64,000 nt of DNA from Aureispira sp. (GCA_050633105.1 JBOEFW010000016.1:160195-224194), one strand, 5' to 3'. Counted from the first letter of the stretch, positions 10,357-24,905 are shown. Notes: generated by a model from the letters alone, not told the origin. Numbers and translations are program-made.

Positions 10357-10396
10357 ACCTTGCTTGGTAAGGTTTTTAAGATAGATTTATTTCCCT

Positions 10397-10438
10397 CCCT
10401 TTTTGCTTTGTTTAAAAAAGCAAAAAGGGATTTTTTTG
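10397..10438 (+). terminator. Rho-independent terminator after rho
   Basis: 10-bp stem ccctttttgc / gcaaaaaggg followed by a T7 run. A weaker hairpin plus T-run sits at 10355-10377 (acctt / aaggt). Confidence 0.7.
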
Positions 10439-10528
10439 TCATGGAGGGAAGATATCTTGCTTTTGTTATTGTTGTGGAATTATCGTATTTTGTTGTCATC
10501 TGTTTTTAACTTCTAATTCACTGATACC

Positions 10529-10981
10529 ATGACTGTCATTGCACTGTGCAAAGTTTTAATGTTGGGCTGTGGAGGAGCACTGGGTTACTATTTTGTAATT
10601 TCTTATGTCTTCCATTATTTTCCTATGCCCATCTTTCTAAAAGCAGATGCATTGCTAAAAGGCTGGCACTTAAAACGCCTAGCAGAAAACAAAAATGCTT
10701 CTGATTTTCTATGGCGCATGGGCAAAGGTTTCTTAAACACCTTGCTCTTGGGCGCTTGGTGGCTTGTTTTTGCAGGCTTCGCCTATATTCTCTACTCCGT
10801 TTTACACTACTATTTTCCAGAAGTTGGCTCCTTATTTTGGCCTTACTATGGCCTCGCTATTGCGTTGCCTGCCATTTGGGTATTGGTACGGTTTATTGCT
10901 TTCTTCAAAAAGAAGCCTGTAGAAGAAATTAAAATTGCATTGGACACTCGTCCATTGATTGAGCAAGTTGCAAAGGGCTAA
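10529..10981 (+). CDS. hypothetical integral membrane protein
   Basis: Four predicted hydrophobic helices. No recognisable family. Confidence 0.5.
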   Translation: MTVIALCKVLMLGCGGALGYYFVISYVFHYFPMPIFLKADALLKGWHLKRLAENKNASDFLWRMGKGFLNTLLLGAWWLVFAGFAYILYSVLHYYFPEVGSLFWPYYGLAIALPAIWVLVRFIAFFKKKPVEEIKIALDTRPLIEQVAKG

Positions 10982-11645
10982 GGATAGACAACACTTTCTA
11001 TTACTCAAGAAACTTTTCTCTCGTGTCACTTAAAAATAGTTGATGCACCTCTTTATAGAAGTCTTGCACTTAACCATCTGTTCAACAACACATGACAGCT
11101 ATTATAAAGCTCAAAGCGGAGATAAACAAGCTGTCTCTACATTGAGTAGATGGGCTGTTATTTGGAGCCAATACTATTTTAAACACCTTAAATTCCTCTG
11201 ATTGGGAAACCTTAACTACGGATCTACTCCAATGGAATGATATAGAATTACAAATTCTTGCAGAAGCTATTATGGAGGATGACTTTCTCTCTTATGTCGT
11301 AGAGAAATGTCAGATTTTTGGTATCCTATTTATATTAATAGAAGATTCAGCGGCTAGCTTTTTATTTAATAGTCATATAGATGAGTTTTTCGGTCAAATT
11401 GATCGTCAATCTAAGGCCCCTCTTTTAAGCTTGTTAGAAAACATGAGTATTAAGGTTGATGGCTTGTACAAAGCAATTTTTTTATCCAAAGAGGAATACC
11501 TATATTTTGAAAGGAAGTCAAAAGAGGCCTAAGTTACTATATAGTGCTGTACTAACAAGCGCTACAAAATCATATCTTATTCTTCTATCCAGCCATCCTG
11601 CCTAATGTTATAAGCAATTGGATTGCATTACCTCCTAACGCCATT

Positions 11646-11960
11646 GTGGTTCCTATTGCTTCCTTTGGACCTGTTAAAACAGATTCCCCAGATTCTAAAA
11701 TGGTGTATTGTTGGCTTATTGATAAAAAGGACACCTTAAATAACCTCCTCATCAAAGAAGGTTGTTTTCCTAGTGGAACAATGATGCTACAAAAGATTTT
11801 GGAAGAAAAATATCCATGGGAAAAAGAATTGGATGACGGTTCTAATGAAAAATCAGCCGTTCAAGTACTAATAGATCAAAAAATTTATGCCCGCTTTATA
11901 GAACAAATAACAGCCGCTGAACTTTTTGCTAGAAAAGAAAAACGAGGGATTTGGAAGTAA
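11646..11960 (+). pseudogene. C-terminal remnant of a staphylococcal-nuclease (SNase/thermonuclease)-like gene (tentative)
   Basis: The ending AAELFARKEKRGIWK and the preceding LNNLLIKEGCF resemble the SNase C-terminal half (EAQAKKEKLNIWS, VNEALVRQGLA). The N-terminal catalytic half is absent and the ORF has a non-ATG start. Confidence 0.3.
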
Positions 11961-12427
11961 GAAACAGAAGTTCAGAAAAAATAACAAAAACAGAAATCTG
12001 GAAAAAGGGCAATTATATAAATTCTGTTTAAATTCTGTTGACCAACTACTATCAACGGAATGAAGCAGTAGGATATGGAGCAAGTTCCTTCTTAGTTCGA
12101 GGCAAAAGGGATACACTCTTCTGCACAGCAAAACATTTGCTAGGAGAAGCTATGGAGATTCAGCCAATAGTTACAACAGATACGTTTCATTCCTCTTTTA
12201 TTTACTGGAAGGCTTTACCTTTTAATTGCCATAGGTCAAACGGTCTCTCTAAAATTTGCTACCATTACAAAAGTCAATAATTATTGGAAATAAAGCAACA
12301 CATAGGCTACATCAATATAGCTGGTAGTTCGTTTAATTTTTCCAAACAAAATGCACGATCAACTATGTCCTATCAGCCAATATTAATGCCCCCCTCTAAG
12401 CGCAGTACTCACGACCGTAAGGAGCGA

Positions 12428-13246
12428 ATGATAAAAGGTCCCTTTTTTCTCCTAATCCTTTTTTTAATGGTTGGATGTACCGAACAACCTGCAACGGTAA
12501 GTCCAGAATCAACTCCCCGTTTAGAACCAATAATTACTACTCCTGAAAAAGAAAAGGACAGCATTGTTGAAAAAGAGGAACTAAAGGAACCTCTTATTCG
12601 CCATTTAGAAGAATTGAGCCTTGTAGAACCCTCAAAAAGTTATACTTCGGTCAAAAGAGCCATTGAAAGAGAAAGAGGGCAGTTAATTTCTAAAGAATTG
12701 GAAATGGATGTGCTATCCATGCTCTTTAAAACAGCCTTGCTAAATAAAATAATTCCCTTTTGGGAGGGAACAGAGTGGTCCTTTGAAGGCCATACCTCAA
12801 AACCAAAATCTGGCACCATCGCATGTGGTTACTTTGTCTCGACCACCTTACAGCACATCGGATTAAATATAAATCGATATAAATTAGCGCAACAAAGCCC
12901 CATCAATGAAGCCACAAGCTTAGCAGTAAATATCAATGTAAAAGAATTTTCTGCTCCTTCCAATACTCAAAATATCGCTGCCATCCATGCCTATCTAAAA
13001 GAAGGCATCCATTTCATAGGATTTGACCAAAGTCACGTTGGTTTTATTCTAAAGGAGAAGGGGCATTTGTATTTAATCCATTCCAATTATAGCGATGGTG
13101 TAGGAGTAGGAATTGAGCCCATAGAACAATCCGTTGTCTTTGATTCTTACAACAGGTTTTACATCACAGAACTAAGCACGAATGTTAGTTTAGTGAGCCA
13201 TTGGATAGAGGGAAAAGCAATACCAATCATAAAAGTAGAAAATTAG
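12428..13246 (+). CDS. hypothetical lipoprotein, possible papain-like (NlpC/P60-type) Cys-His fold
   Basis: Lipobox MIKGPFFLLILFLMVGC at the ATG at 12428. Candidate Cys (GTIACGYFVS) and His (QSHVGFILKEKGHLYLIHSNY) are spaced as in NlpC/P60-like enzymes. The fold call is weak. Confidence 0.5.
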   Translation: MIKGPFFLLILFLMVGCTEQPATVSPESTPRLEPIITTPEKEKDSIVEKEELKEPLIRHLEELSLVEPSKSYTSVKRAIERERGQLISKELEMDVLSMLFKTALLNKIIPFWEGTEWSFEGHTSKPKSGTIACGYFVSTTLQHIGLNINRYKLAQQSPINEATSLAVNINVKEFSAPSNTQNIAAIHAYLKEGIHFIGFDQSHVGFILKEKGHLYLIHSNYSDGVGVGIEPIEQSVVFDSYNRFYITELSTNVSLVSHWIEGKAIPIIKVEN

Positions 13247-13323
13247 TCGCCTAATAAAAGGGGGCTATCCCTATTAGAGAAAGACAGCAGGAAGTAATAC
13301 AAATGCACGTTATCTACCACTGA

Positions 13324-13587
13324 TTGAATTTGAAAGGAATCCGTTGGCTACCTAAAAAGCGGGCTATTCCCTGTCGAAATTTCTTAAATGATGGAACAAA
13401 AAGACCAATGGTTTTCTTATGGATACCAGCGATATCCACCTATTTTGATGACCCAGATGGTCATTCTCTAGAGTTTGTCAGAATTTTAGATGGCTCCTCT
13501 AAACCAGAAAACCGAATCATTTCTTATGAAAAATGGAAAGCGTTAGAAAACAAACATAAAAGCCACGTACCAATGAATTTCTGGTAA
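13324..13587 (+). pseudogene. C-terminal fragment of a VOC/glyoxalase-family gene (tentative)
   Basis: YFDDPDGHSLEF is the typical last beta-alpha unit of VOC proteins. Only about 85 codons remain, the start is non-ATG, and no N-terminal half lies upstream. Confidence 0.35.
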
Positions 13588-13763
13588 AAGCCCATTTACT
13601 AAAGTCTTCCTAGCTTTTTTCTACTATCATTTATTTCCTGCTTTTTATGCTTATATTTGTACTACAGATACTACAAAATAGTGTAAAGTAATAGACATTC
13701 ATTACACTCCTTGCCCAACACCCAAACTAACCATTATTCATCTCCTTCTGTGATCTCCTGCTC

Positions 13764-14243
13764 ATGCGCACCTTTCTTTTCTGTTTCCTAAGTTTATTCC
13801 TTTTTTTAGTAGGCTGTAAATCTAGCTCTACGTCTACGATAGCAGGCGCCAATTCGTCCGCCAAATCCTTATTAGAAGCAGTCCATTTAGAAATAGAAAA
13901 AATGGCAGAATTCACCTTGAAGACCAATATTGAGCGGCGTCGAACTTCTATTCCTATTAATGACCAACAGGCAGCTTTCTTAGAAACACATACTCGTTTT
14001 AAGAACATTGTTTCACAAAATCAAAAAGAATTCACGAACTGGCTCCAACAACAGAAAACACTTTCTAAAAAAGAACAACAAGAAACAATTGTCTGCTTGC
14101 AACAAGCACCTCCATTACCTACCAATTGTTCACAAAATAACCTCTTAATAAGGTTAAATGAAGTTGTTCTTCCTAAGGTCATCCACGACGTTAGTAACTA
14201 TAGTGTACAGTTTCTTGGTCGAGTGAACAAATCCTTAGAATAG
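13764..14243 (+). CDS. hypothetical lipoprotein, short member of the local paralog family
   Basis: Lipobox LFLFLVGCKS. It shares the KKEQQ-x-C...C segment with the N-terminal halves of the next two genes. Confidence 0.55.
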   Translation: MRTFLFCFLSLFLFLVGCKSSSTSTIAGANSSAKSLLEAVHLEIEKMAEFTLKTNIERRRTSIPINDQQAAFLETHTRFKNIVSQNQKEFTNWLQQQKTLSKKEQQETIVCLQQAPPLPTNCSQNNLLIRLNEVVLPKVIHDVSNYSVQFLGRVNKSLE

Positions 14244-14360
14244 ATTATTCTTCTTGCACACAACAGGTTCTAAACATCCATTAATTTTCAATAAACTTGA
14301 GAACAAGTCAGCTTCTTTAATAAAAACTCTAATTCCCACCTAAACATCCAAGAAGATCTT

Positions 14361-15152
14361 ATGAAACAATTCCTATTTTTACCTTTTCTACTAGCTTTAC
14401 TTTGCGTCAACAGTTGCCAAACTACGCGTCTCTCTTCTAAAAAATTAGAACAAGTCGTACAAGATCGCGTCGCCCTTGTTTTTGATCGCTATGTCCAAGA
14501 ACTGGTCGAAGAACGCGCTTTTGCTCTAGCAGAAAATGCAGATTTAGACAGCAATCAAGTCGCTCAATTATTAGACCTATCTCAATGGGAACATTTAATT
14601 CAAGCAAGGCGTGACAGTGTCAAGAATTTCGCTAATCAACAACTTCCTTCTAGGCAAGAAAAAGAACAATTCTGTGCATGTATTGATCAGAAGTCCAAAG
14701 CCTCTTCTTGCCAAGATCTCCTTGTCCCTATTGCCAATAAAACAGGTACACAAATAGACCAACTAGTAAGCCCTTTCGAATTTGCATTTACCAAAAAAGC
14801 TCTAGATAATAACTGGGTGCCCAGCAATACTACTCGCAAAAATTGTGCAAGCCTCCATACAGGGCTTTTTTATTACCATACACCGTTTCAGAAGATGCGG
14901 GTAGAAGTTGATCGTTATGAAAGTGGACAAACCGAAGTATTAAGAACGAAGAAAAGCACCTACAAAATTGTTTGGGACCAATACAATAAGTACCGAATCA
15001 TTCAATTGAATACCAGCCAAGAATTTGAGGCTGCTTTTGAAATACTACAAGTCCACCCTACTTATTATATTTTTAAATGTCCCATTCCATACGATGCAGA
15101 AAACCCTGATTATGTTATTGGCAGATTGTATCGGGCGGAGAAGAAGTCATAA
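14361..15152 (+). CDS. hypothetical lipoprotein, tandem paralog A (263 aa)
   Basis: Lipobox LLCVNSCQ. It has four conserved Cys, PTYYIFK and a C-terminal RAEKKS, and can be aligned end to end with the next gene. Confidence 0.7.
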   Translation: MKQFLFLPFLLALLCVNSCQTTRLSSKKLEQVVQDRVALVFDRYVQELVEERAFALAENADLDSNQVAQLLDLSQWEHLIQARRDSVKNFANQQLPSRQEKEQFCACIDQKSKASSCQDLLVPIANKTGTQIDQLVSPFEFAFTKKALDNNWVPSNTTRKNCASLHTGLFYYHTPFQKMRVEVDRYESGQTEVLRTKKSTYKIVWDQYNKYRIIQLNTSQEFEAAFEILQVHPTYYIFKCPIPYDAENPDYVIGRLYRAEKKS

Positions 15153-15205
15153 GCAATTCATTTCTACTTTTTCTAAAAAAATCTATACTTCTAAAAATCA
15201 TCGAT

Positions 15206-15997
15206 TTGTGCCTGAAATACATCCTCAGCTTATTGACTCTTATATTTTTAAGCAACTGCCAAAGCACTCAATTATCTAATAAAAGAATACAGAAAACAAT
15301 CCATAAGCAAGTAACGATTTTTTTTAATCAATACGCTAAAGATGCTATTCATAATCGAGCACTGCGGCTTAGTCAAGATATAGGCTTAGATAGTTTGCAA
15401 TATGTAGAATTAGTAGAATGGTCTCAATGGGAGACCACGATAATACAACCTAGAAGAGATAGTGTATTAACATTTTCTACCAGTACTTTTTTTTCTAAAG
15501 AAGAAAAAGAGGGAATTTGTGCTTGTATAGAGCATCAAAATGCTACGCCCAGTTGTAAAAAATTGATGCGCCCTATTACAGAAAAAATACACCAAGAAGC
15601 AGATAAATTATTAGCATCCTTAGCAGTAGCTATGGTTACCAAAACACTGAATGAAAAATGGATTTCCAAAAATGCTACTCCTAAAAATTGTGCTCCTTTA
15701 CGTTCAGGAATATTTTATTACTTAACTCCAGTTCATAAAGACCGAGTAGAGGTAGAACGATACAAAGATGGTCAAGTAGAAACTTTAAGTTCTCAAGTTA
15801 GTCGTTATCAGATTATTTGGGAAGATTATGATCACTATCAACTAATAGGTTTAGAACAAGAAAAAGGATTTAAAGTCGATGTTGAAATATTTCATGTCCA
15901 ACCTACTTATTATATTTTTAAGCTCAAATTGCCTTCAACGACTGATGAGGCCAATTATATTTTAGGACGTATTAATCGGGCGGAGAAGAAGTCATAA
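15206..15997 (+). CDS. hypothetical lipoprotein, tandem paralog B (263 aa)
   Basis: Lipobox IFLSNCQ, the same length as paralog A and the same conserved Cys, PTYYIFK and RAEKKS features. The start is TTG because no in-frame ATG is nearby. Confidence 0.65.
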   Translation: MCLKYILSLLTLIFLSNCQSTQLSNKRIQKTIHKQVTIFFNQYAKDAIHNRALRLSQDIGLDSLQYVELVEWSQWETTIIQPRRDSVLTFSTSTFFSKEEKEGICACIEHQNATPSCKKLMRPITEKIHQEADKLLASLAVAMVTKTLNEKWISKNATPKNCAPLRSGIFYYLTPVHKDRVEVERYKDGQVETLSSQVSRYQIIWEDYDHYQLIGLEQEKGFKVDVEIFHVQPTYYIFKLKLPSTTDEANYILGRINRAEKKS

Positions 15998-16079
15998 TTT
16001 TTTAGTGTTATAGGGAACAAGTTGTATCCAAAAAACTGTTAGTAGGATGAATTTTATTTCATTTATTCTTAACAAAATC

Positions 16080-16424
16080 ATGAAAAATACCACTTGGCTT
16101 TACCGACCTGTTAATCAAGCAGAGTTGGATTTGATAGCGGCAAAAGATTGGAAGGGTTTTCCCCCTCGTTTATCGGAGCAACCTATTTTTTATCCTGTCA
16201 TGAATGAAGGCTATGCCGCAGAGATTTGCAAAAAATGGAATGTGCCTGCTTATGGTGTGGGTTATGTGACGCGTTTTGCGGTCAATAGTGCGTATTTAAA
16301 GCGTTTTCGAGTAGAAAATGTAGGTGCTGCGCGTCATAATGAGTTGTGGGTTCCTGCGGAAGAGTTGGAGGCGTTTAATGCGCAGATTGTAGGGAAAATT
16401 GAGGTGACGCAGACGTTTAAATAA
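16080..16424 (+). CDS. conserved hypothetical protein (about 114 aa)
   Basis: Well-behaved ORF (MKNTTWLYRPVNQAELDLI...PPRLSEQPIFYPV...GYVTRF...WVPAEELEAFN) with ordinary, non-repetitive composition. I cannot name a family. The ATG at 16080 is preferred over 16047. Confidence 0.55.
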   Translation: MKNTTWLYRPVNQAELDLIAAKDWKGFPPRLSEQPIFYPVMNEGYAAEICKKWNVPAYGVGYVTRFAVNSAYLKRFRVENVGAARHNELWVPAEELEAFNAQIVGKIEVTQTFK

Positions 16425-16560
16425 TAAATTTTCTGGCTTTTAAGCCTTGTAATATAGAGGAGTGCTCTTAGCGGAGGGCTCCTTTTTCTTTTTAAGAAGC
16501 CAATGCATGAGTCAATTTTTTATTGTAAAAATTGTACCTTAATACTTTCTTGTAAATTCA

Positions 16561-18117
16561 ATGAACCAAGCCTCCATGTATAAGATTGAATACCTTGTTA
16601 TTGCTGATAAGACGACGACTAAAAGTGTCCAAGCACTGGAAAATCTACTAAAATCAGATGATGATATACAGTTGCAAGATGGCTGTCTTGAAGTCGGCAA
16701 CTTCAAAGGTAAATATACGATTTCTAAAGGGGAGGTAGCGGCTAGTGATAATAAGGGCCTTTATTTCCATTTATCCTTTGAGTGTGAGGAAGAAGAAGAA
16801 ATACCTGCTTTTGGAAAAGCCTTGCGCCGTGTACGTGGGCGCTTAAGTTTTCTCAATCAAAAACAATTTGTGATTTGGGATGATGTCTCTCGTCATTACA
16901 GCCATAAAGCCTACAGCCAAATCAATTATATTGAGAATTTGATGAGAAAGCTCTTAACTAAATTTATGCTGGTTAATTTAGGCATGAATTGGGACAAGCA
17001 GCGTATGCCGAATGATGTCTTTACTTCTATTCATAAGGACAATAAAGACTTTAATCATCTTAATAATCTTGATTTTATTAAGCTTAGTGACTTTCTATTT
17101 AGTAAGAATTACCCAAAGCATAAGGAGGATGTATTTAAGAAATTAGATGCCGCCAAAAGTAGTGCAGATATTGACCTAGACGAAATTCGCTCGCTGTTGC
17201 CGCGCAGTAACTGGACGAAGTATTTTGGTTCAATCATTGATTGTGATGGGGATTTTATCGAAAAACGCTGGGAACAGTTATATCAACTCAGAAATGCGGT
17301 TGCTCATAATAAAACCTTTGGTTTAAAGCAGCTAGAGGAAGTAGAGAACTTAGTCGGAGAAATTGGGGAATATTTAGAGGTGGCTGTTGCCAAATTAGAC
17401 GAGGTGGTTGTTCCAAAAGAACAAATTGAAGATGTTGTACAAGAAGTTGTTACAGAAGGGAGAGAAGAGTTAGCGGAGTTCTTGAATGGAATGGAGGAAT
17501 TGGAGCATGTTCTTCGAAAGTTTTATCAGCTCCATTTTAATCAATACAATCGCCAAGACCTGTCTATATACAATACGATAGATGAAATAATATCCTTAGA
17601 TGATAAATACATATTCAATCATGAGGATCATTTCAACCTTATATTTCATTTATTTGATTTAAAAGACAACATTAAAATTAAGAAAAAGTATGTTCTTCAA
17701 GAATTCGACTTTCTCAATTTTCACATCAACAATTTTATTGAAATATTAAACAAACGTATCCCTTATGAAGAAGGGGATCACCTTACTCCCATAAAGAGTA
17801 ATCGGGTAAAACAACTCTACCAAACCATAAAAGATAGTCTACTCAATGTTGGTTTAATTCTCAAAATCAACAAACATTACATTTCTTTCCTTAAAGAAGA
17901 ATCCAACATAATAGACATTAAACTCCAACAAAGAGGCTTAAAAATCTGGCTGAACGCTCCAAAAGGAAGCTTAAGTGATCCTAACAAAATCACTAGAGAT
18001 GTATCTCACGTCGGACACTTAGGCAATGGAGATTATGAAGTTATTCTAACCAAAGAAGAACAACTCCAAAAACTAATGCTTCTTGTTCAACAAGTCTTAG
18101 ACAAGGCTCCCCAATAA
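16561..18117 (+). CDS. multidomain HEPN-domain protein (Swt1-like HEPN, predicted RNase) with unknown N- and C-terminal modules
   Basis: The Rx4H motif RNAVAH (aa 244-249, nt 17290-17307) closes a helical domain that opens with YIENLMRKLLTKFMLVNLGMNW. Other parts are an unknown N-terminal module of about 110 aa, acidic linkers (ECEEEEE, EDVVQEVVTEGREELAE), and a C-terminal module of about 110 aa (HYISFLKEE...IWLNAPKGSLSDP...VSHVGHLGNGDYEV). The gene is visibly more AT-rich than its neighbours. Confidence 0.75.
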   Translation: MNQASMYKIEYLVIADKTTTKSVQALENLLKSDDDIQLQDGCLEVGNFKGKYTISKGEVAASDNKGLYFHLSFECEEEEEIPAFGKALRRVRGRLSFLNQKQFVIWDDVSRHYSHKAYSQINYIENLMRKLLTKFMLVNLGMNWDKQRMPNDVFTSIHKDNKDFNHLNNLDFIKLSDFLFSKNYPKHKEDVFKKLDAAKSSADIDLDEIRSLLPRSNWTKYFGSIIDCDGDFIEKRWEQLYQLRNAVAHNKTFGLKQLEEVENLVGEIGEYLEVAVAKLDEVVVPKEQIEDVVQEVVTEGREELAEFLNGMEELEHVLRKFYQLHFNQYNRQDLSIYNTIDEIISLDDKYIFNHEDHFNLIFHLFDLKDNIKIKKKYVLQEFDFLNFHINNFIEILNKRIPYEEGDHLTPIKSNRVKQLYQTIKDSLLNVGLILKINKHYISFLKEESNIIDIKLQQRGLKIWLNAPKGSLSDPNKITRDVSHVGHLGNGDYEVILTKEEQLQKLMLLVQQVLDKAPQ

Positions 18118-18120
18118 AAA

Positions 18121-18147
18121 AGCGCCCCGAAAATATTCGGAACGCTT
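18121..18147. terminator. hairpin between the convergent HEPN and ykuK-like genes
   Basis: agcgccccgaa / ttcggaacgct with a 2-nt internal mismatch and an A-run upstream. It lies in the 68-bp gap between two gene ends. Confidence 0.45.
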
Positions 18148-18185
18148 CATTATAGTGTCAGTAAGTTTTTAATAGAAAAGGAGTT

Positions 18186-18656
18186 TTAGCAGACTTTGTC
18201 GGCACAACTAGAACTCGCAAAAGCATTGGGTTTGGCTTTGAACTCATAGCCCATACCTTTAATGTATCCCATTGCTTCTTTTAGGGCGACATTGGATTTG
18301 AAACTCGCATCGGTATTAATATCCGCGTGAATTTCTAATGCAAGGTCGAATTGGTCCCAAATTTCGGACAATTCATAAGCCAGTGTAACGGAGCGGCTCA
18401 CCTCCTGTATCATCCGTTCGCGAATCGCCATTTTTTGGACGAGAACTTCGCTGTTGATGAACATAAATCCACCTTTGCCCTCTCGTAGAAACACAATTAC
18501 GGTAGCAAAACCAATGTTTTTGCCACGAACTTGCGAATCAGTTCCGATACAGACTTTTAGGGAATGTCCTTCTGCCAATTCTTTTTGGATGGTCTTCTCT
18601 ACTGCTTCTTTAATGGGGAGCAAAATTCTGCTTCCATTTAATCTACGCCAGCTCAT
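18186..18656 (-). CDS. YkuK/DUF458-family RNase H-like protein
   Basis: The IGTDSQ motif, the 156 aa length and the overall pattern match my recollection of the Bacillus YkuK (DUF458) family. Confidence 0.65.
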   Translation of the reverse strand: MSWRRLNGSRILLPIKEAVEKTIQKELAEGHSLKVCIGTDSQVRGKNIGFATVIVFLREGKGGFMFINSEVLVQKMAIRERMIQEVSRSVTLAYELSEIWDQFDLALEIHADINTDASFKSNVALKEAMGYIKGMGYEFKAKPNAFASSSCADKVC

Positions 18657-18970
18657 GCTTGCTTAATTTAGAGGTTAAGGATTAGAAAGACAACCTTGTG
18701 TACTTTCTTTATTTGTCCCGTCTGACAACTGCGCATACAAGAACACCTACTATAGCTTATACAACTATTATTCCCTAATTTGTGGGAAGGTGCAAGACAT
18801 TAGTAATTGATTGTCTGTGCATTTTGTTGTTGACATACTATCACCTAACTCCACCAAAGGCGTATAAGTTCCAAGGAGTGTATTCTTTTTATGTAAAGAA
18901 AAGGTTACTTCCTAGACGCCTGTTGGGCAAATGGAATAAAAGAGAAAGAGTGATAGAGAACAAACAGAGC

Positions 18971-20386
18971 CTAGCTAAAGCCAAATAAACGACGACTGTC
19001 TAACTTGATTAGAATACCCATGAGAATAGAAAAGGAGAGCAAAGAAGAGCCTCCATAACTGACAAAAGGCAATGGAATACCAATAACAGGCACTAAACCT
19101 ACGGTCATTCCCACATTAATAAACACATGGAAAAACAAGATAGAGGCGACGCCTAAGGCATAGTATTTGGTAAAGAGGGAGCGCTGGCGTTGTGCCAAGA
19201 AAAGAATGCGTAAAATGAGGGCAAAAAAGACAAGAATGATAAAGGTAGTCCCCATGAACCCCCACTCCTCTCCTACGGTACAGAAGATAAAATCAGTAGA
19301 TTGTTCGGGAACATAATCGAGCTTGGTGCGCTCTCCCTGTAGAAAACCTTTGCCTCCCCAACCTCCTGAACCAATGGCAAATTTTGATTGCTCTACATTG
19401 TATAAAGGCCCTAAAGGATGGCATTTCTCTGGGCGTAACCAAACCCAAATACGTTCTTGGCGGTGGGTTCCAATCAGATTATTCACAATGTAATTAACGG
19501 AAGTCGAGAAACCAACTGCCATAGACACCAACAGCCCTACAAAGAAACTTCCTTCCCAGTTCTTCTGCCAAATATTAAATAAACCCAAGCCACCTAAGAC
19601 TAAGCCATTAAAAGTCGTAATCCAGATCGGTGCCAATTCGGTCAATAAGAAGTACGTTATTATCCCTTCTAAAGCAATAAAAGCCATCCAAATATTTTCC
19701 TTGCGTACACTTCTTAACAACACCGTATTGCCTACAATTAAGATCACATTGATGAGCCACCAAGTATCGTCATACAACAAAGCCGCAATTGCTAAAGCAG
19801 CCGTTACAATACCTAAGATATACAGCCAGACATCCATTCCCGCGCGAAAAAGTAGGATAAAAAAGGAAAAGTAAACCAAGGTTGATCCTGCATCTCCTTG
19901 CAATAGAACCAAGGCCACAGGCATCAAAATAATAGCAAAAGCAATGATTTTAACCCGTAATTCTTGCATTCTCATATTAGGCATACTCAAAAAAGAAGCC
20001 AGCATCAAGCAAGTTGCAACCTTTCCAAACTCAGACGGCTGAAAACGGAAGCCGCCTATATTATACCAAGAGGTAGCCCCCTTGATCGCTGTCGTAAAGA
20101 GTACTCCAACTAGAAGCAACATAGTTATCCCATAAAAAACAGGGGCAAAGGTTTCATAAAAACGCGCTTCTATCAATTGAATAATACCAACAATGCCCGT
20201 TGCTAGTGTAATCCATAACAGTTGCTTGCCATAGTTCTTATTCAAATCATACAAGCTAGTAAAAGAAGCTTCGTCCAAATACCCTGCGGCAAAAATCATT
20301 GCCCAACCACTGATCACCAACGTTGCCCAAAGCAAAATTGTAATCCAATCATATCCTCCAATGTCTGAGTCTCTACTTTGACGCAT
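18971..20386 (-). CDS. rodA: rod shape-determining SEDS glycosyltransferase RodA
   Basis: FtsW/RodA/SpoVE patterns (PEQSTDFIF, SYGGSSLL), 10 or more TM segments, and a position immediately downstream of mrdA. Confidence 0.9.
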   Translation of the reverse strand: MRQSRDSDIGGYDWITILLWATLVISGWAMIFAAGYLDEASFTSLYDLNKNYGKQLLWITLATGIVGIIQLIEARFYETFAPVFYGITMLLLVGVLFTTAIKGATSWYNIGGFRFQPSEFGKVATCLMLASFLSMPNMRMQELRVKIIAFAIILMPVALVLLQGDAGSTLVYFSFFILLFRAGMDVWLYILGIVTAALAIAALLYDDTWWLINVILIVGNTVLLRSVRKENIWMAFIALEGIITYFLLTELAPIWITTFNGLVLGGLGLFNIWQKNWEGSFFVGLLVSMAVGFSTSVNYIVNNLIGTHRQERIWVWLRPEKCHPLGPLYNVEQSKFAIGSGGWGGKGFLQGERTKLDYVPEQSTDFIFCTVGEEWGFMGTTFIILVFFALILRILFLAQRQRSLFTKYYALGVASILFFHVFINVGMTVGLVPVIGIPLPFVSYGGSSLLSFSILMGILIKLDSRRLFGFS

Positions 20387-20442
20387 GCTTTATTCTTCTT
20401 ATTCTGATAAGGAAGTTGGTTGTAGTAAAAAAGGGCTGTCCT

Positions 20443-22314
20443 TTAAGGCGTTTGGCTACTGTAACTATTTGCTACCCGTTTAATCAAATCTGCTTTGAGC
20501 ATTTGTTTCTCTAAGGATTGACGCTGTTTGCTATCAATACTACCCTTGATGTATTTTTCAATCATCAAACTAGAAATAGGCGCGGCATAGGTAGAGCCAA
20601 AACCTCCATTCTCTACAAAAACGGCAATCGCAATTTTAGGATTGTTACGAGGGGCAAAAGCGATAAATGTGGAGTGGTCTTTACCTTTACTGTTTTCCAC
20701 AGTTCCAGTTTTACCACACATCACAATATCTGGAATGATAGAACGACGACCTGTTCCTGCTGTCACTACCCGAGCCATGCCATCTACGACAGGTTCAAAA
20801 TGATTGGGATGGACTTTGGTATAATGCCGCTGCTTAAATTTATCTAAGATGCCTGTACTATCGCCTTGAAATTCTTTGGCAAAGTGTGGTGTATAATAAT
20901 AACCTCTATTTGCAATAATCGCCGACATATTCGCCATTTGTAAAGGCGTAATCAACAATTCCCCTTGTCCAATACCTACTGAAACGGCAGTTGAAAATTT
21001 CCAAAGCCCTTTGCCATGTTTTTTATCATAATAAGCAGCAGTAGGAACATGCCCCGCTGCTTCATTGGGAATATCAACCCCCAATTTAGCTCCTAACCCC
21101 CAAGCATGTAAATGGTCAGCCAATTTATTCATTCCTTTTTCAGGATGATAAAAACCATACACATTCACCAACTCCCGAAACGTTTGGCAATAATATTTAT
21201 TACAAGAATACTGAATGGCATTGCCTACATCATTAATCGCACCATGTCCATGACAGCCCACTCGCAACGTTCCATATAAAAAACCGCCACTACAAGCCAT
21301 CCCACGTCCTGGTGTCAAAATTCCTTCTTCTAGGCCAATCGCAGACAAAACTGGTTTAAAAATAGATCCTGGAGGGTATTTCGCCATTAGCGCCCGATTA
21401 AACAAAGGAATTAAAGAATCCCGTTGTAAGGTTCTAAAAGCCTCTTGACGATTTCTATTAACCGCTAAGACAGAAGGATCGTAACTAGGGCTACTAATCA
21501 TCGCCAAAATTTCCCCTGTTTCTGGTTCTATTGCTACAATAGCCCCTACTTTGTTTTTCATTAACTCTTCTCCATAGGCTTGTAATTCTAAATCTATAGA
21601 GGTTACTAAATCATAACCAGAAACGGCAGATTGATCCATGCTACCATTTTTATATTGCCCTTTCCGCTTTCCCCATTTGTCCTTCAAAACGTGTTCTACG
21701 CCTCGAATTCCACGCAATTGCGCTTCATAGGACAATTCTAAACCACTCGTACCAATGTATTCTCCTCGTTGGTATAAGCCTTCTGAGGCTTTGATTTGTT
21801 TGGGGCTTACCTCACTGATGTATCCCAACATATGGGCACCTACTTTGGCGGGGTACCCACGCACACTCTTACGTTGGCGTTCGAAGCCTGGAAATTCGTA
21901 TAAACGTTCTTCAATCGCGGCAAATTTATCTCCAGGGATTTGGGTGAGAAAATCAAAGGGTTTTCGTTGAGAATAACGACTGTCTCTAAAATCTTTATTC
22001 AGGTTTGCTTTGAAGGTGCTGTCTGTAATCCCTAGTAAATCACAAAAACTAGCCGTATCTATATTCGCTTTCCGAATTTGATTATAAGTGGCTTTGAGGT
22101 CGTACATCGCCAAATTATAAACCAATAATTCTCCGTGGCGATCCTTGAGTGCTCCTCTAGAAGGATAAAGCGTAACCGCTTCCCTATAACTGTGTTGTTG
22201 TTGGTAGGATTTGTCTAGTACTTGGATTTTAAAACACTGAAAAATCAATGCAAGCGCCGCCAATACAAACGTAGCTTGCAGTACTTTTTGTCTATCTTGA
22301 TATAAATCTTGCAT
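20443..22314 (-). CDS. mrdA: penicillin-binding protein 2 (elongasome transpeptidase)
   Basis: N-terminal anchor, SxxK (GSIFK), SxN (YSCNKY) and KTG (CGKTGTVE) motifs. It lies between mreD and rodA. Confidence 0.9.
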   Translation of the reverse strand: MQDLYQDRQKVLQATFVLAALALIFQCFKIQVLDKSYQQQHSYREAVTLYPSRGALKDRHGELLVYNLAMYDLKATYNQIRKANIDTASFCDLLGITDSTFKANLNKDFRDSRYSQRKPFDFLTQIPGDKFAAIEERLYEFPGFERQRKSVRGYPAKVGAHMLGYISEVSPKQIKASEGLYQRGEYIGTSGLELSYEAQLRGIRGVEHVLKDKWGKRKGQYKNGSMDQSAVSGYDLVTSIDLELQAYGEELMKNKVGAIVAIEPETGEILAMISSPSYDPSVLAVNRNRQEAFRTLQRDSLIPLFNRALMAKYPPGSIFKPVLSAIGLEEGILTPGRGMACSGGFLYGTLRVGCHGHGAINDVGNAIQYSCNKYYCQTFRELVNVYGFYHPEKGMNKLADHLHAWGLGAKLGVDIPNEAAGHVPTAAYYDKKHGKGLWKFSTAVSVGIGQGELLITPLQMANMSAIIANRGYYYTPHFAKEFQGDSTGILDKFKQRHYTKVHPNHFEPVVDGMARVVTAGTGRRSIIPDIVMCGKTGTVENSKGKDHSTFIAFAPRNNPKIAIAVFVENGGFGSTYAAPISSLMIEKYIKGSIDSKQRQSLEKQMLKADLIKRVANSYSSQTP

Positions 22315-22385
22315 GGCAATTCTTACTTTTAAAGGCCATCAAAAAAACACAGCTCTTGTCAAAAAGGGTGTATTTGGGTAGTGGG

Positions 22386-22889
22386 TTATTCCTTGGGGTT
22401 AAAAATGTACTGATACAAGATCGTGACTAGTATAGAGAGTGTAAAAATCATGACCACACTTAACAACCACAACCAAGAAAACACTTGCAATTGCTCTAAG
22501 GTCACCACCCAAATAGTATGCAATAAAAACAGCGAAGCACTGTATTGTATAAACCAACGAATCCCTAAATTGTATCGACTAGGCGCTTTCCCTGGTTCGT
22601 ACCCCCCTCTAGGTTCTAACACTGCTAAAATCAACGGGCGCAAAGCAGCCACAGCCACAGCCGCAGAAGCAAATTGCCCTGGAGTATTGTAGATCGCATC
22701 TACTAATAAACCATAAAAGAAGGCCAGTAGCATTGCTGCTCCATGAACCATTCCAACAGGTAACAACAGCACAAATAAGGGGTAGATATAAATATCTATC
22801 GCTACATAATCCACTCCTTTTAGAATGAATTGTAAGACCAACAACAAAATGAACCGCAAGGCATTCGTGCGTAAAATAGTACTATTCAT
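22386..22889 (-). CDS. mreD: rod shape-determining protein MreD
   Basis: Small polytopic membrane protein whose start overlaps the mreC stop by 8 nt. This is the canonical position. Confidence 0.8.
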   Translation of the reverse strand: MNSTILRTNALRFILLLVLQFILKGVDYVAIDIYIYPLFVLLLPVGMVHGAAMLLAFFYGLLVDAIYNTPGQFASAAVAVAALRPLILAVLEPRGGYEPGKAPSRYNLGIRWFIQYSASLFLLHTIWVVTLEQLQVFSWLWLLSVVMIFTLSILVTILYQYIFNPKE

Positions 22890-23721
22890 GAGTAGTTGCT
22901 TCTTCTAATATTAGACGTTCTTCTTTGAGTAAATCAGAGACTACGTACACATACTGTACATTATTCATATCATTGAATAAAGATACTTTGATATCATAAA
23001 AATTAAGGCCAGGTGGGCGGGTAACACTGTCTACTTTTCCAATTAAGATGCCCTCAGGAAAAATTGTAGAATAACCACTTGTAACAATGGTATCTCCTTC
23101 GTGTACTTCGGCATGTTTAGGAACCGATTCCAAACGCAAATGCTGTGCATCCTCTCCATCCCAAACTAAAATCCCAAAGTTATTATTACGCAAAATCTTA
23201 GCACTAATTCTAGTATCTATATTTAATAAAGACATGACCACTCCAAAATTATTACTCACTTTTTGCACCACTCCAACAACCCCTGTTCCATTGCCATTCA
23301 AGACACCAGAGTTTGCCCTTACTCCTTGACGACGCCCCCTATTTATGGTCAGAAAATTATGTCTTCTGTGGATCGTGTTATTAACCACTTTTGCCTCAAA
23401 GTATTGATACTGTTGTTGCAAAGTTGTGTCTTTGATGGTATTGACTTGTACCAAGGAAGTAAACTTAGAACTAGGCAGTTTCATTAATAATTCGGCATTT
23501 GTACGAGCCAAACTATCGTTAACCGCAGAGAGATTCCAATAACGCGTGGCATTGCTACTCGTCTCATACAAATTGCCGATGAGGCCATTGGCAGAGCTGA
23601 GAAATGCTTTTTTTTCTGGGTTACTATTTCTACTAAAATAGAGGGTCAGTGCAATAATTTGCAGAATAAAAAAAGCAAAAACGCCATTGTATTTGAATAG
23701 AAATAACGCAATTCGCTGCAT
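22882..23721 (-). CDS. mreC: rod shape-determining protein MreC
   Basis: N-terminal anchor, a coiled coil and then beta-rich domains (GDTIVTSGYSTIFPEGILIGKV). It lies downstream of mreB. Confidence 0.9.
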   Translation of the reverse strand: MQRIALFLFKYNGVFAFFILQIIALTLYFSRNSNPEKKAFLSSANGLIGNLYETSSNATRYWNLSAVNDSLARTNAELLMKLPSSKFTSLVQVNTIKDTTLQQQYQYFEAKVVNNTIHRRHNFLTINRGRRQGVRANSGVLNGNGTGVVGVVQKVSNNFGVVMSLLNIDTRISAKILRNNNFGILVWDGEDAQHLRLESVPKHAEVHEGDTIVTSGYSTIFPEGILIGKVDSVTRPPGLNFYDIKVSLFNDMNNVQYVYVVSDLLKEERLILEEATTHE

Positions 23722-23870
23722 AAGGAAGACTAAAACTTCAGAATAAGCATGGCTTGGGAGCCAACTCTTCTGAGTGGTTAAAAAATTGCCGAACTTACTA
23801 CCACCAGTGCAATAAATTCGGCAATTGAAAACAGTCTATGGTTGCTTATGGTAAAGCAATCTAAAAACTG

Positions 23871-24905
23871 TTACATATTTTTGTGTGTAATCAAGAACGA
23901 GTATTTCACGCGATTCTTGAGAGCAATACCTGTTCCACGAACAACCGCACGTAGTGGGTCTTCTGCAACATGAACGGGTAGTTTTGTTTTTTGAGCAATA
24001 CGCTTGTCTAAGCCACGCAATAGGGCTCCTCCGCCAGTGAGGTATAAACCTGTTTGGTAAATATCCGCTGCCAACTCTGGTGGTGTATTTTCCAAGGCCT
24101 TCAAGATGGCATCTTCAATCTTAGAGATTGATTTATCCAAGCAATGACTAATTTCATTGTAAGAAACCATGATTTGCTTTGGGATACCTGTCATTAAATC
24201 ACGACCATTTACAGCATAATCTTCTGGTGGCACTTCCAATTCGTGCAAGGCTGCCCCTACATTAATTTTGATCTGCTCAGAAGTACGTTCTCCAATCAAG
24301 AGATTGTGCTGACGGCGCATGTAATTCATAATATCTACCGTGAATTCATCTCCCGCAGTACGGATAGATTGGTCACAAACAATACCAGCTAAAGCAATAA
24401 CAGCAATTTCTGTTGTTCCTCCTCCAATATCAATGATCATGTTCCCAATAGGCTCTGTAACATCCAAACCAATTCCTAAAGCAGCAGCCATTGGTTCATG
24501 GATTAAGTAGGTTTCACGCGAGCCTACATGTTCTGCAGAGTCAAATACTGCCCGTTTTTCTACTTCGGTAATACCTGAGGGGATACAAATAACCATGCAC
24601 ATATTGCGAAATAGTTTGCGGCGATCAGGAATCATATTAATGAGTCCTTCAATCATACGCTCAGCCGCTTCAAAATCTGCAATAACCCCATCTTTGAGCG
24701 GGCGAACCGTGCGAATCATTTGGTGCGTTTTTTCGTGCATCATCATTGCTTTGCGTCCGACGGCAATGACATCGTTGGTATTGCGGTTGACGGCCACTAT
24801 AGAGGGCTCGTCCACAATAACTTTATCTTCGGAAGTGATAAGGGTATTGGCGGTACCCAAATCAATGGCGATTTCTTGTGTAAAAAAGCTAAAGAAGTTT
24901 TTCAT
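23871..24905 (-). CDS. mreB: actin-like rod shape-determining protein MreB
   Basis: Actin-fold phosphate motifs (DLGTANTL, DIGGGTTE). The 344 aa length fits. Confidence 0.95.
   Translation of the reverse strand: MKNFFSFFTQEIAIDLGTANTLITSEDKVIVDEPSIVAVNRNTNDVIAVGRKAMMMHEKTHQMIRTVRPLKDGVIADFEAAERMIEGLINMIPDRRKLFRNMCMVICIPSGITEVEKRAVFDSAEHVGSRETYLIHEPMAAALGIGLDVTEPIGNMIIDIGGGTTEIAVIALAGIVCDQSIRTAGDEFTVDIMNYMRRQHNLLIGERTSEQIKINVGAALHELEVPPEDYAVNGRDLMTGIPKQIMVSYNEISHCLDKSISKIEDAILKALENTPPELAADIYQTGLYLTGGGALLRGLDKRIAQKTKLPVHVAEDPLRAVVRGTGIALKNRVKYSFLITHKNM

Follow-up and report, generated by a model that had tools for sequence, protein, structure and literature searches.

What does a solitary HEPN gene do in an accessory stretch of the genome of Aureispira sp.: does it encode an immune effector, a toxin, a cellular ribonuclease, or a relic? 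The gene lies in the 64,000-nucleotide piece of DNA that was analysed (GCA_050633105.1, JBOEFW010000016.1:160195-224194), referred to here as the window. A preliminary description regarded its product as a large multidomain HEPN protein of unknown architecture that might act as a one-gene abortive-infection system.

The uninterrupted ORF of 518 aa (16561..18117, plus strand, in the ORF list of the window) is a real frame, but its start needs correction. The second methionine (MYKIEYL; MYK or MYR in homologs) is the first residue in all 22 aligned full-length homologs, and the database copy of the protein (P0001) is 513 aa long; on this basis, translation almost certainly begins at 16576 and gives a product of 513 aa. 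Residues are numbered throughout in the 518-aa frame, which begins at the upstream ATG. The gene had been considered more AT-rich than its surroundings, and this was borne out mildly, with a GC content of 35.6% versus a window mean of 38.4% (7.5th percentile).

Table 1. Features of the HEPN gene and its surroundings, in window coordinates
Feature	Coordinates	Strand	Basis
7.1-kb accessory segment, HEPN gene last	10972..18113		blastn against relative L072
Terminator-like hairpin after the upstream 115-aa gene	16464..16479	+	terminator scan
CDS, HEPN-HEPN-DUF5655 protein	16576..18117	+	ORF list, homolog starts, P0001
N-terminal alpha+beta domain (beta-alpha-beta4-alpha-beta), residues 6-107	16576..16881	+	AlphaFold models, alignment
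HEPN domain 1 (Swt1-like), residues ~112-278	16894..17394	+	Pfam matches of relatives, conservation
HEPN1 Rx4H motif, R244-N-A-V-A-H249, predicted catalytic	17290..17307	+	alignment, motif census
HEPN domain 2 (HepT-like), residues ~300-400, degenerate in the window copy	17458..17760	+	profiles, hhalign, model
Lost second Rx4H site, K368-D-N-I-K-I373	17662..17679	+	alignment, motif census
DUF5655 (PF18899), residues 402-516, alpha / beta-sheet / alpha	17764..18108	+	PDC-S18, Pfam of relatives
GHLGNGDYE loop, G485-E493	18013..18039	+	family, domain and 148-protein alignments
GC-rich terminator-like hairpin, right edge of the segment	18119..18148		13-bp stem and T-run, terminator scan

The accessory location proposed earlier was confirmed. 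The relative L072 is collinear with the window at 8668-10971 and 18114-24000 by blastn and has about 30 bp in place of the intervening segment; the HEPN gene is absent from four of eight close relatives whose DUF458 proteins are 93-96% identical. The segment carries ORFs of 320 and 159 aa, two paralogous lipoprotein-like ORFs of 263 aa, a conserved 115-aa ORF and the HEPN gene; the companions of the HEPN gene are lipoprotein-like and not defence genes. No tRNA, no boundary repeat of at least 8 bp and, among the scanned ORFs, no integrase were found in it. The hairpin at the right edge separates the HEPN gene from the convergent DUF458 gene, and L072, which lacks the insertion, has the hairpin at the same position. 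Because they are convergent with a terminator between them, these two genes do not form an operon. On the other side, a gap of 137 nt separates the HEPN ORF from the upstream 115-aa gene, and the hairpin after that gene suggests that the HEPN gene is a transcription unit of its own. The 115-aa ORF accompanies it in the closest relatives alone. In four related genomes the HEPN gene occupies the same slot, beside the highly conserved DUF458/YkuK RNase H-like gene and the rodA-mrdA-mreDCB cluster.

The architecture is less singular than was thought, since at least 27 clusters have the same layout and NCBI calls some of these proteins 'DUF5655 domain-containing protein'. The predicted order is a family-specific N-domain, a Swt1-like HEPN domain (HEPN1), a degenerate HEPN domain (HEPN2) and DUF5655. 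The family core is composed of the N-domain, the Swt1-like HEPN with an invariant Rx4H and the HepT-like HEPN, and is sporadically distributed; in Saprospiraceae, DUF5655 has been added to its C-terminus. This is a tandem-HEPN family, and the earlier domain parse, which misread the middle region, had overlooked the second HEPN. Pfam scores of the window protein itself are weak or absent, so that the domain calls rest on homologs and on a match to the PADLOC profile PDC-S18. No matches to the window protein were found in PHROGs and NCBIfam, and whole-protein sequence and fold searches of the PDB gave noise or small generic alpha/beta domains.

HEPN1 is the best-conserved part of the protein, with a mean column identity of 0.71 and a dN of 0.039 to the closest relative, like that of housekeeping neighbours. 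Pfam HEPN_Swt1 (PF18731) matches 63 of 78 relatives (E<=0.01), and P0062 (33.9 bits), P0028 (28.5) and P0014 (28.0) exceed the cut-off of 27.5 bits. The window protein scores below it (15.5 bits, E=0.021), and its membership consequently rests on transitive homology; the Swt1-like assignment made in the preliminary description holds at the family level. The motif LRNAVAHN is located where it had been placed. Neither R244 nor H249 varies in 23 full-length homologs, and across the 78 relatives both are conserved to at least 90%; in a motif census, all 74 relatives with a HEPN domain have Rx4H at the corresponding alignment position. Residues 108-278 are all-helical in the AlphaFold model, with pLDDT mostly >75; no HEPN structure was among the Foldseek matches of the whole model.

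Profiles, motif census and hhalign identify the following region, formerly described as helical and very AT-rich, as a second HEPN domain, whose Rx4H has been lost in this copy. Positions 305-402 of the family profile match solved HepT toxins (5yep, 6m6w) with the Rx4H motifs aligned. Pfam HepT-like (PF01934) matches 36 of the 78 family members, for example P0048 at residues 321-369 (28.7 bits, cut-off 23.5). The coordinates of the Pfam matches in relatives keep HEPN1 and HEPN2 apart, and the motif helices of the two domains align in hhalign (P=2e-4). Relatives show both the HepT-like match and the motif, whereas the window copy has no such Pfam match and carries K368...I373 in place of Rx4H. 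The aligned site reads R-S-N-I-N-H in the closest relative, P0002, and RNxxVH in most relatives. A second Rx4H, about 120 residues after the first, is present in around 80% of relatives and in most of the 74 of the census; it is missing from the window copy and from P0004, P0005, P0016, P0019, P0042, P0045, P0049, P0067 and P0073. In every lineage that has lost it the HEPN1 motif is intact, and no lineage has the reverse pattern. The domain is still predicted as a helical bundle (pLDDT 78-96), but it is only 25-35% identical to the closest relatives, compared with 84-92% in HEPN1, and residues 301-400 are encoded with a GC content of 28.7%. Judged by its aligned residues, HEPN2 of the window copy is catalytically degenerate.

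The N-domain is also present in relatives of about 400 aa without DUF5655. It had been thought to end in an acidic run, but ECEEEEE (74-80) is an internal loop and the domain extends to about residue 107 (WDD). Modelled in isolation by AlphaFold, it reaches a pLDDT of 88 and a pTM of 0.82, and the family alignment reveals conserved residues at E10, F69 and W106-D107-D108. Sequence searches of the PDB and Pfam found nothing similar, and no specific structural relative emerged among PDB folds, where weak, generic ferredoxin-like matches alone were obtained (best E 5e-3, TM<=0.5). An RnlA-like or TBP-like fold, guessed from the beta-alpha-beta4-alpha topology, was discarded after the PDB gave no RnlA, LsoA or TBP match. 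One may conjecture that this domain is a sensor or an oligomerisation module.

At the C-terminus, the suggestion of a DUF5655-type domain associated with restriction and defence has been substantiated. Positions 181-301 (of 302) of PDC-S18 match residues 394-513 with E=7e-30, and Pfam DUF5655 matches 25 of the 78 relatives, though not the window protein itself. With a profile of the C-terminal region that included the window sequence, 1941 representative proteins were retrieved; of the 148 best, Pfam assigns 146 to DUF5655. The full model has a match in a phage 'DUF5655 domain-containing protein' (E=3e-4), and the domain resembles YdhG/DUF1801 and YjbR folds weakly (TM 0.55-0.57). The most conserved feature of DUF5655 is the GHLGNGDYE loop, (nearly) invariant in the family and across 148 diverse DUF5655 proteins. 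Among the top 150 matches the domain is C-terminal in nearly all, and its partners there include T5orf172/MUG113, HSDR_N_2/NucS_C/PDDEXK_4, GmrSD, HNH, HEPN_Swt1, AIPR and AAA_21. By these domain matches, fusions with DUF5655 as the C-terminal module recur among unrelated nucleases of GIY-YIG-like, PD-(D/E)xK, HNH, GmrSD and HEPN type. It might serve as a sensor or target-recognition module, and nucleic-acid binding by it is likewise conjectural. In the literature searched, a single paper, on an unrelated subject, mentions 'DUF5655', and none mentions 'PDC-S18'.

The whole protein is 73%, 67% and 52% identical to its syntenic relatives, versus 84-96% for flanking proteins, and diverges 3-10 times faster than its neighbours. 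Synonymous sites are saturated in all genes compared with the three syntenic relatives (pS 0.43-0.91), which makes dN/dS ratios unreliable; dN and identity were used instead. The dN comparison indicates purifying constraint on the N-domain, HEPN1 and DUF5655, with dN of the N-domain and HEPN1 between 0.04 and 0.09. The gene has kept its slot in four related genomes across a divergence that saturates synonymous sites, which means long retention, an observation that counts against a defence reading.

Across 61 genome loci the family is spread over at least 11 phyla. The gene stands alone, as anticipated for a one-gene system: ORF clustering found no conserved partner, no neighbour family occurring in more than 6 of the 61 loci, and the 222 nearest neighbours carry a mixed set of Pfam domains. 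Housekeeping contexts for the homologs had been considered beforehand; what was found instead are a P2 hotspot, a BREX-1 operon, restriction-modification genes and other defence neighbours. Of the three findings named in advance as counter-evidence, namely the lack of any HEPN profile or structural hit, an Rx4H that varies among homologs and consistently housekeeping surroundings, none was obtained. P2-like prophages of E. coli H15 and E275a carry a homolog (WP_063109269.1 in H15; 33% identical over 293 aa, E=2e-43) flanked by the genes for tail-fibre assembly and the tail sheath. This position is the fun/Z locus, described as a second defence hotspot of P2 (PMC9519451; PMC13586616). A Nostoc plasmid homolog is placed between brxC and pglX, inside a BREX-1 operon. 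The relatives found in these defence positions (P2 Z/fun, BREX-1, beside restriction-modification and other defence genes) lack DUF5655. Close neighbours elsewhere comprise type II methyltransferases and restriction endonucleases, PD-T7-1, NsnAB, BnzB, TIR-TM, MkoA, MzaC and MADS, each of them an individual case; integrases, transposases and CI repressors were also observed. Eleven relatives are carried on IMG/VR viral contigs, and the INPHARED phage genomes gave no matches. The PADLOC check that had been proposed yielded the C-terminal PDC-S18 match and a second partial match, to PDC-M34B over one helix, but PADLOC (2023) has no system model for the family. No experimental work on any family member was found in the literature searched. 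To the eye, the E. coli homolog may have a PD-(D/E)xK-like C-terminus, but a PDB sequence search returned nothing meaningful.

Taken together, the protein is with moderate confidence regarded as a self-contained accessory HEPN ribonuclease, most likely a one-protein anti-phage system of abortive-infection type, the latter role being suggested by context and analogy. Other explanations draw on the same data. An RNase domesticated in the Saprospiraceae lineage, no longer immune and serving, for example, RNA turnover under stress, quality control of RNA or regulation, would fit the shared slot beside DUF458/YkuK and rodA-mrdA-mreDCB and the strong constraint on the N-domain and HEPN1; the loss of the HEPN2 motif could mark a changed function, and core RNA processing has drawn on HEPN domains several times, e.g., in Las1 and Swt1 (PMC3710099). 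It is made improbable by the absence of the gene from four of eight equally close relatives, by the lack of an operon with the convergent DUF458 gene, by a divergence well above that of the neighbours, and by a distribution over many phyla without conserved context, in the vicinity of defence genes and mobile elements. Improbable to the same degree is a decaying or catalytically dead copy, which would be a relic or a non-catalytic binder of RNA or protein. Cleavage by HEPN enzymes needs both motifs, and the window copy has K368...I373 where P0002 keeps RSNINH, in an AT-rich region of low identity. Two HEPN domains pair within one chain to form the Cas13 site (PMC12165695), and Las1 likewise builds its site from two HEPN motifs, the requirement of both being the message of a Las1 preprint (10.1101/760058). 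If HEPN1 paired with HEPN2 in one chain, the window copy could be inactive, which also counts against the defence reading. Decay is, however, difficult to reconcile with a frame intact over 1.5 kb, with a HEPN1 motif that is invariant in all lineages lacking motif 2 and never lost in the reverse manner, with purifying constraint on three of the domains, and with a middle region still confidently predicted as a helical bundle. Moreover, most HEPN RNases build their site by homodimerisation (PMC12165695) and HepS does so within a tetramer (PMC13043305), and HEPN1:HEPN1 pairing is thus possible.

Little probability attaches to a selfish toxin, or addiction module, that is neutralised by the protein itself or by an unlinked factor and maintains the 7-kb segment or a mobile element instead of acting against phages. 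HEPN domains are common toxins, as in HepT/MntA, to which HEPN2 of the family is linked by HepT profiles and solved HepT structures with aligned motifs; one relative is found near an MNT/HepT pair, and several adjoin integrases and transposases. But HepT has an adjacent MNT antitoxin, and no MNT or antitoxin-like gene lies beside the window gene or is conserved in the 61 loci, the upstream 115-aa ORF being limited to the closest relatives. HepT is also a stand-alone domain of about 130 aa, whereas the HepT-like domain here is internal, with its catalytic residues lost in the window copy. The accessory segment is devoid of mobility genes, and the placement of relatives at P2 fun/Z and within BREX is better explained as defence cargo. 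A compact, RNA-guided tandem-HEPN enzyme like Cas13, already disfavoured, has virtually no probability. Most family members share with Cas13 two HEPN domains in one polypeptide, and Cas13 has been proposed to derive from the fusion of two defence HEPN genes related to AbiD/F and Swt1; Swt1/AbiD-F-like HEPN, the kind to which HEPN1 belongs, has been discussed as resembling the ancestral Cas13 HEPN in structure (PMC12165695). Cas13, however, possesses an array, a guide RNA and a REC-like lobe, none of which the window protein has, and no sequence or fold match to Cas13 was obtained. No CRISPR array or tandem repeat was found near the gene, no Rfam match in the accessory segment even at E<=1, and no conserved flanking non-coding element, the intergenic gaps being variable. 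Unlike in Cas13, the second HEPN of the family is HepT-like and dispensable or degenerate in several lineages.

For the preferred reading, an anti-phage HEPN ribonuclease, the closest analogue in behaviour is HepS of the Gifsy-1 prophage, a solo, partnerless HEPN that is inactive at rest and not toxic when overexpressed without phage; a phage tail-tip protein activates it by allostery, and it cuts tRNAs in the anticodon loop (PMC13043305). Both HepS and this family are single HEPN proteins with a canonical Rx4-6H, no conserved partner or inhibitor, a frequent occurrence on prophages and a proposed resting state switched on by a phage component. HepS proteins are, however, defined as stand-alone HEPNs of <250 aa homologous to STM14_3211 (PMC13043305), with one HEPN and no extra domains, in contrast to the 513 aa, N-domain, two HEPNs and DUF5655 found here; the sequence and fold searches of the PDB copies used matched no HepS structure. 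PDC-S18 (NucS-like PD-(D/E)xK plus DUF5655) is likewise a single-gene candidate and has a homologous C-terminal DUF5655, 45-49% identical, but its effector is a NucS/PD-(D/E)xK DNase instead of a HEPN. True members (P0075-P0078) match profile positions 1-301 and carry NucS_C, while the match of the window protein is confined to 181-301; it therefore falls outside PDC-S18 and, from its domain content, is an effector-swapped analogue. HEPN1 belongs by profile to the bacterial Swt1/Abi2 clade, whose members are described as active proteins set among restriction-modification or defence genes; the fusions listed for that clade involve AAA+/DUF499, TM helices, SF-I helicases and the like, and not an N-domain followed by two HEPNs, with or without DUF5655 (Anantharaman et al. 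2013, PMC3710099). RnlA and LsoA, which are anti-phage, also have N-terminal alpha/beta domain(s) preceding a HEPN RNase, but neither a sequence or fold match to them nor an RnlB/LsoB-type antitoxin gene was found.

As an anti-phage ribonuclease the protein would be inactive at rest, and a phage-derived cue would be recognised by the N-domain and/or DUF5655; the latter would act as an effector-agnostic module, being also present on DNases from four further superfamilies. Once recognised, the cue would turn on cleavage of RNA by HEPN1, with tRNA, rRNA or mRNA as likely substrates, and this cleavage would halt phage replication. Since the HEPN2 Rx4H is lost and HEPN1 is invariant and strongly constrained, the active site would most likely arise from a pair of HEPN1 domains in a homodimer or oligomer, and HEPN2 may have been kept as a structural or regulatory pseudo-HEPN. 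A more general scheme, which is doubtful, would make the family a non-CRISPR, single-chain tandem-HEPN RNase whose two HEPN domains differ in function, HEPN1 remaining catalytic throughout and HEPN2 being a dispensable regulatory partner, and in which activation falls to swappable sensors, with DUF5655 as a general sensor or target-recognition domain gating five nuclease superfamilies (HEPN, PD-(D/E)xK, GIY-YIG-like, HNH and GmrSD) through the invariant GHxGNGDYE loop. In that scheme HEPN2 has repeatedly turned into a pseudo-HEPN, and the tandem arrangement is the one postulated for the ancestor of Cas13.

If the anti-phage role holds, an uncharacterised one-gene HEPN defence family would extend from P2 hotspots of E. 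coli and BREX operons to environmental Bacteroidota, and the E. coli P2 homolog renders it experimentally tractable. The family would also provide a natural experiment on the second HEPN, as motif 2 is kept or lost while motif 1 is invariant, and this comparison bears on the assembly of HEPN active sites and on the origin of tandem-HEPN enzymes such as Cas13. DUF5655, a domain to which no function has been assigned, would be marked as a portable C-terminal module on at least five nuclease superfamilies, and knowledge of what it recognises would explain at one stroke how many candidate systems, PDC-S18 included, are activated or targeted.

The 518-codon open reading frame and the motif LRNAVAHN (R244 and H249) recorded in the preliminary description are both present, and the gene is AT-rich as claimed, with a GC content of 35.6% vs 38.4% for the window (7.5th percentile among windows of equal size) and only 28.7% in its middle third. 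The true start is most likely position 16576, because 22 of 22 aligned full-length homologs begin at the second methionine (MYKIEYL) and the database copy of the protein has 513 aa; residue numbers here follow the 518-aa frame. Hairpins lie at both ends of the gene, which looks monocistronic.

Coordinates of the features discussed (window positions unless a residue range or another locus is named)
Feature	Position	Strand	Remark
7.1-kb segment	10972-18113		six ORFs
First 263-aa ORF	14361-15152	+	lipoprotein-like signal sequence (...LLALLCVNSC)
Second 263-aa ORF	15206-15997	+	lipoprotein-like signal sequence (...FLSNC)
115-aa ORF	16080-16424	+	directly upstream of the HEPN gene
Terminator-like stem	16464-16479		hairpin 3' of the upstream gene
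HEPN-gene ORF	16561..18117	+	518 codons
DUF5655 domain	residues 402-516		window protein
13-bp stem	18119-18148		hairpin between the HEPN gene and the convergent downstream gene
DUF458/YkuK gene	18186-18656	-	RNase H-like; convergent with the HEPN gene
E. coli homolog	L070 8676-10004		P2-like prophage
E. coli homolog	L075 3176-4504		P2-like prophage
Nostoc homolog	L076 5992-7221		plasmid pNsp_c

Scanned alone, the window protein gives a Pfam HEPN_Swt1 match below the cut-off (E=0.021), no DUF5655 match and no NCBIfam match. With PADLOC, residues 394-513 match the C-terminal 120 positions of the candidate system PDC-S18 (E=7e-30), and residues 115-161 weakly match PDC-M34B. Searching 5.8 billion proteins yielded 78 relatives in three groups: 27 full-length proteins of 510-540 aa, several of which (Lewinella, Phaeodactylibacter) bear the name 'DUF5655 domain-containing protein'; about 47 of roughly 400 aa, spanning the first ~60% of the window protein and named 'HEPN domain-containing protein' (Bacillus, Pseudomonas, Pantoea, Enterobacter); and four of ~300 aa sharing the C-terminus alone. 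Pfam assigns HEPN_Swt1 to 63/78, a HepT-like domain to 36/78 and DUF5655 to 25/78. The two HEPN profiles match separate places, Swt1-like (HEPN1) at ~118-268 and HepT-like (HEPN2) at ~304-377, the latter scoring 28.7 bits in the relative P0048 against a Pfam cut-off of 23.5. Positions 305-402 of the family profile match the solved HepT toxins 5yep and 6m6w, with the family 'lrnklvh' opposite the toxin 'LRNIAVH', and hhalign aligns the motif helix of HEPN1 with that of HEPN2 (P=2e-4). In a motif census of 74 relatives, most carry a second Rx4H motif (consensus RNxxVH) ~120 residues past the first. Pfam coordinates, toxin match, hhalign and second motif together define a family core of N-domain, Swt1-like HEPN and HepT-like HEPN, to which DUF5655 was added in the Saprospiraceae branch. 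The window protein belongs to the Swt1-like clade of the HEPN superfamily and carries DUF5655. The preliminary interpretation was largely right but incomplete: its Swt1-type HEPN and DUF5655 domains are borne out by the relatives, and what it took for a helical, AT-rich middle region is a second HEPN domain that it missed.

The N-domain is a family-specific module. Its sequence (residues 6-107) matches none of the solved structures; modelled alone (pLDDT 88, pTM 0.82), its fold matches only generic ferredoxin-like folds, with a best E of 5e-3 and TM<=0.5. Another family member, P0063 (541 aa, from the homolog search), has the N-domain and both HEPN domains followed by a ~128-aa C-terminal extension (...YYWFGFHPRQLDFL...) instead of DUF5655, a further sign of an exchangeable C-terminal module.

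The two HEPN domains have fared very differently. In the census the first motif is lost in no member. The second reads K368-D-N-I-K-I373 in the window protein opposite R-S-N-I-N-H of P0002, the closest relative (72% identical), and is also gone in P0004, P0005, P0016, P0019 and a few short members. HEPN1 is 92% identical to P0002 and 84% to P0004, vs 35% and 25% for the middle region that contains HEPN2, which is hyper-divergent. Compared with the closest relative, non-synonymous divergence is lowest in HEPN1 (0.039), followed by the N-domain (0.087), DUF5655 (0.25) and the middle region (0.61); no dN/dS ratio is given because synonymous sites are saturated. AlphaFold (78-sequence alignment; mean pLDDT 88.6, pTM 0.59) still predicts the middle region as a confident helical bundle.

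The DUF5655 module is shared with many nucleases. A profile search of 1.84 billion proteins (E<=1e-3) found 1941 representative proteins, and among the best 150 of these the domain is C-terminal in nearly all. The earlier suggestion that restriction- or defence-type proteins carry it at their C-termini is confirmed. Pfam recognises DUF5655 in 146 of 148 proteins that are new among these 150; their N-terminal partners are T5orf172 (9), MUG113 (8), HSDR_N_2 (6), GmrSD (5), NucS_C (4), HEPN_Swt1 (3), HNH (2-3) and PDDEXK_4 (1), with AIPR, AAA_21, SRAP and a Cap15-type receptor seen once each. The form joined to NucS is PDC-S18. DUF5655 is a promiscuous module. Its best-conserved feature is the loop GH(L/W)GNGDYE; structural comparison gives weak matches to YdhG/DUF1801 and YjbR (TM 0.55-0.57), and just two viral proteins match below E=1e-3, D9ZNF6 (an unnamed protein) and a siphovirus 'DUF5655 domain-containing protein'. 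P0079 (628 aa), from the profile search, has three tandem copies and no other Pfam domain, and several other matches have two, so the domain may act in multimeric or repeated form.

The gene order is serS, rho and a 150-aa membrane protein, then ORFs of 320, 159, 263, 263 and 115 aa and the HEPN gene, followed on the opposite strand by DUF458/YkuK, rodA, mrdA, mreD and mreC. The HEPN gene occupies the same slot in three related genomes (L068, L001 and L004), where flanking proteins are 84-96% identical to those of the window and the HEPN protein 73%, 67% and 52%. It is missing from four other relatives (DUF458 93-94% identical), among them Aureispira anguillae. Three of these have a ~150-aa gene adjoining DUF458 that is related to the 150-aa ORF of the window; in the fourth, L073, the adjoining gene encodes 152 aa and similarity to that ORF was not detected. 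In a nucleotide alignment with L072, a close relative, the 7.1-kb segment corresponds to only ~30 bp, with breakpoints at 10971/10972 and 18113/18114, and searches of it for a tRNA, an integrase and a boundary repeat found none. The accessory stretch proposed beforehand is therefore real, yet without a mobility signature.

Several other features of this locus were observed. What lies between rho and DUF458 differs in each of eight related genomes, which makes this interval a variable slot. The tandem 263-aa ORFs appear to be paralogs; they lack a Pfam family and evolve fast (46-47% identity to the single counterpart in L068). The 115-aa ORF, with no match in Pfam, NCBIfam or PADLOC, reaches 81-87% identity to its counterparts in the two closest relatives, exceeding the conservation of the HEPN gene; it is missing in L004 and at all remaining loci of the family and is probably not a partner. 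DUF458/YkuK is unusually conserved, at 93-96% in relatives with RodA at 77-91% (93% in A. anguillae). A hairpin lies between the convergent genes whether or not the insertion is present: L072 has one at the same position (reverse complement of 7480-7640) with a different stem sequence, and TATAGTGTCAGTAAGTT downstream of it is kept between both.

With one genome per species, 61 loci of the family were found over at least 11 phyla. After ORF calling and clustering, every neighbour family occurs in six loci or fewer, and the 222 nearest neighbours hold 136 Pfam families upstream and 119 downstream; the gene therefore stands alone, as the proposed one-gene arrangement implied. Strong PADLOC matches among the nearest neighbours include type II methyltransferases and restriction endonucleases, type IIG enzymes, PDC-S01, PD-T7-1, NsnA, NsnB, BnzB, MADS proteins, TIR-TM, Stk2, MkoA and MzaC; integrases, CI repressors and DDE transposases are also found. 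Two kinds of context are particularly informative, E. coli P2-like prophages and a Nostoc BREX-1 operon. The homolog in E. coli strains H15 and E275a has 442 aa (33% identity over 293 aa, E=2e-43) and is encoded between tail-fibre-assembly and tail-sheath genes, a position that by the P2 gene order is the fun/Z locus. P2 fun/Z is reported to be a second locus enriched in defence genes (PMC9519451; PMC13586616). The 409-aa homolog of Nostoc sp. ATCC 53789 has both Rx4H motifs and lies inside a BREX-1 operon, flanked by brxC and pglX. Defence neighbourhoods had been anticipated, and relatives do occur beside defence genes and at these two positions. Few E. coli genomes encode a member of the family (5/5426 complete genomes); IMG/VR viral contigs carry 11 relatives, and the INPHARED phage set and PHROGs none. 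Of the family core, the E. coli homolog has retained the N-domain and HEPN1, with a single Rx4H; its last ~140 aa show an IDLIV...VEIK pattern, PD-(D/E)xK-like by eye, and a PDB sequence search with them was uninformative. This suggests a different, candidate C-terminal module in the place of HEPN2.

Databases name the family only generically, PADLOC v2 has no model for it, and the literature searched yielded nothing on DUF5655 function or on the N-domain, HEPN, HEPN, DUF5655 architecture. Membership of PDC-S18, HepT/MntA, HepS, Cas13 and RnlA was rejected for the window protein, which lacks the defining features of each. The protein is a candidate for a one-protein HEPN defence system.

The gene is accessory, partner-less and fast-evolving with an invariant catalytic motif; relatives occupy recognised defence positions, and the C-terminal module is common to many nucleases. 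An anti-phage function is plausible. Domestication to a cellular RNA role seems unlikely: the gene is retained at one slot in four genomes, but it is absent from four equally close ones, and its rapid divergence and the genomic contexts of the family also speak against such a role. That the window copy is an inactive relic or a non-catalytic binder might be read from its lost second motif and AT-rich middle region; an intact reading frame and the strongly constrained N-domain and HEPN1 make this, too, improbable. A selfish toxin is a still weaker proposition, as an antitoxin candidate is absent, and a guide-RNA enzyme can practically be dismissed, neither an array nor an ncRNA having been found.

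For the defence candidate, a mechanism is modelled on HEPN defence RNases generally and HepS particularly. HepS is a solo HEPN protein, inactive at rest, which is switched on by a phage tail-tip protein and then cuts tRNA anticodon loops (PMC13043305). By likeness, the window protein would be a latent RNase: an infection cue would be detected by the N-domain and/or DUF5655, and HEPN1 would then cut cellular or phage RNA, aborting the infection. Since HEPN active sites require two facing Rx4H motifs (PMC12165695) and the window copy keeps that of HEPN1 alone, the working site would most likely form between two HEPN1 domains of a homo-oligomer (HEPN1:HEPN1), HEPN2 being a putative scaffold or regulatory pseudo-domain. 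One-sided motif loss across the family is consistent with this model. Worth attention are the tandem HEPN arrangement with an apparently expendable second motif and DUF5655 as a promiscuous module.
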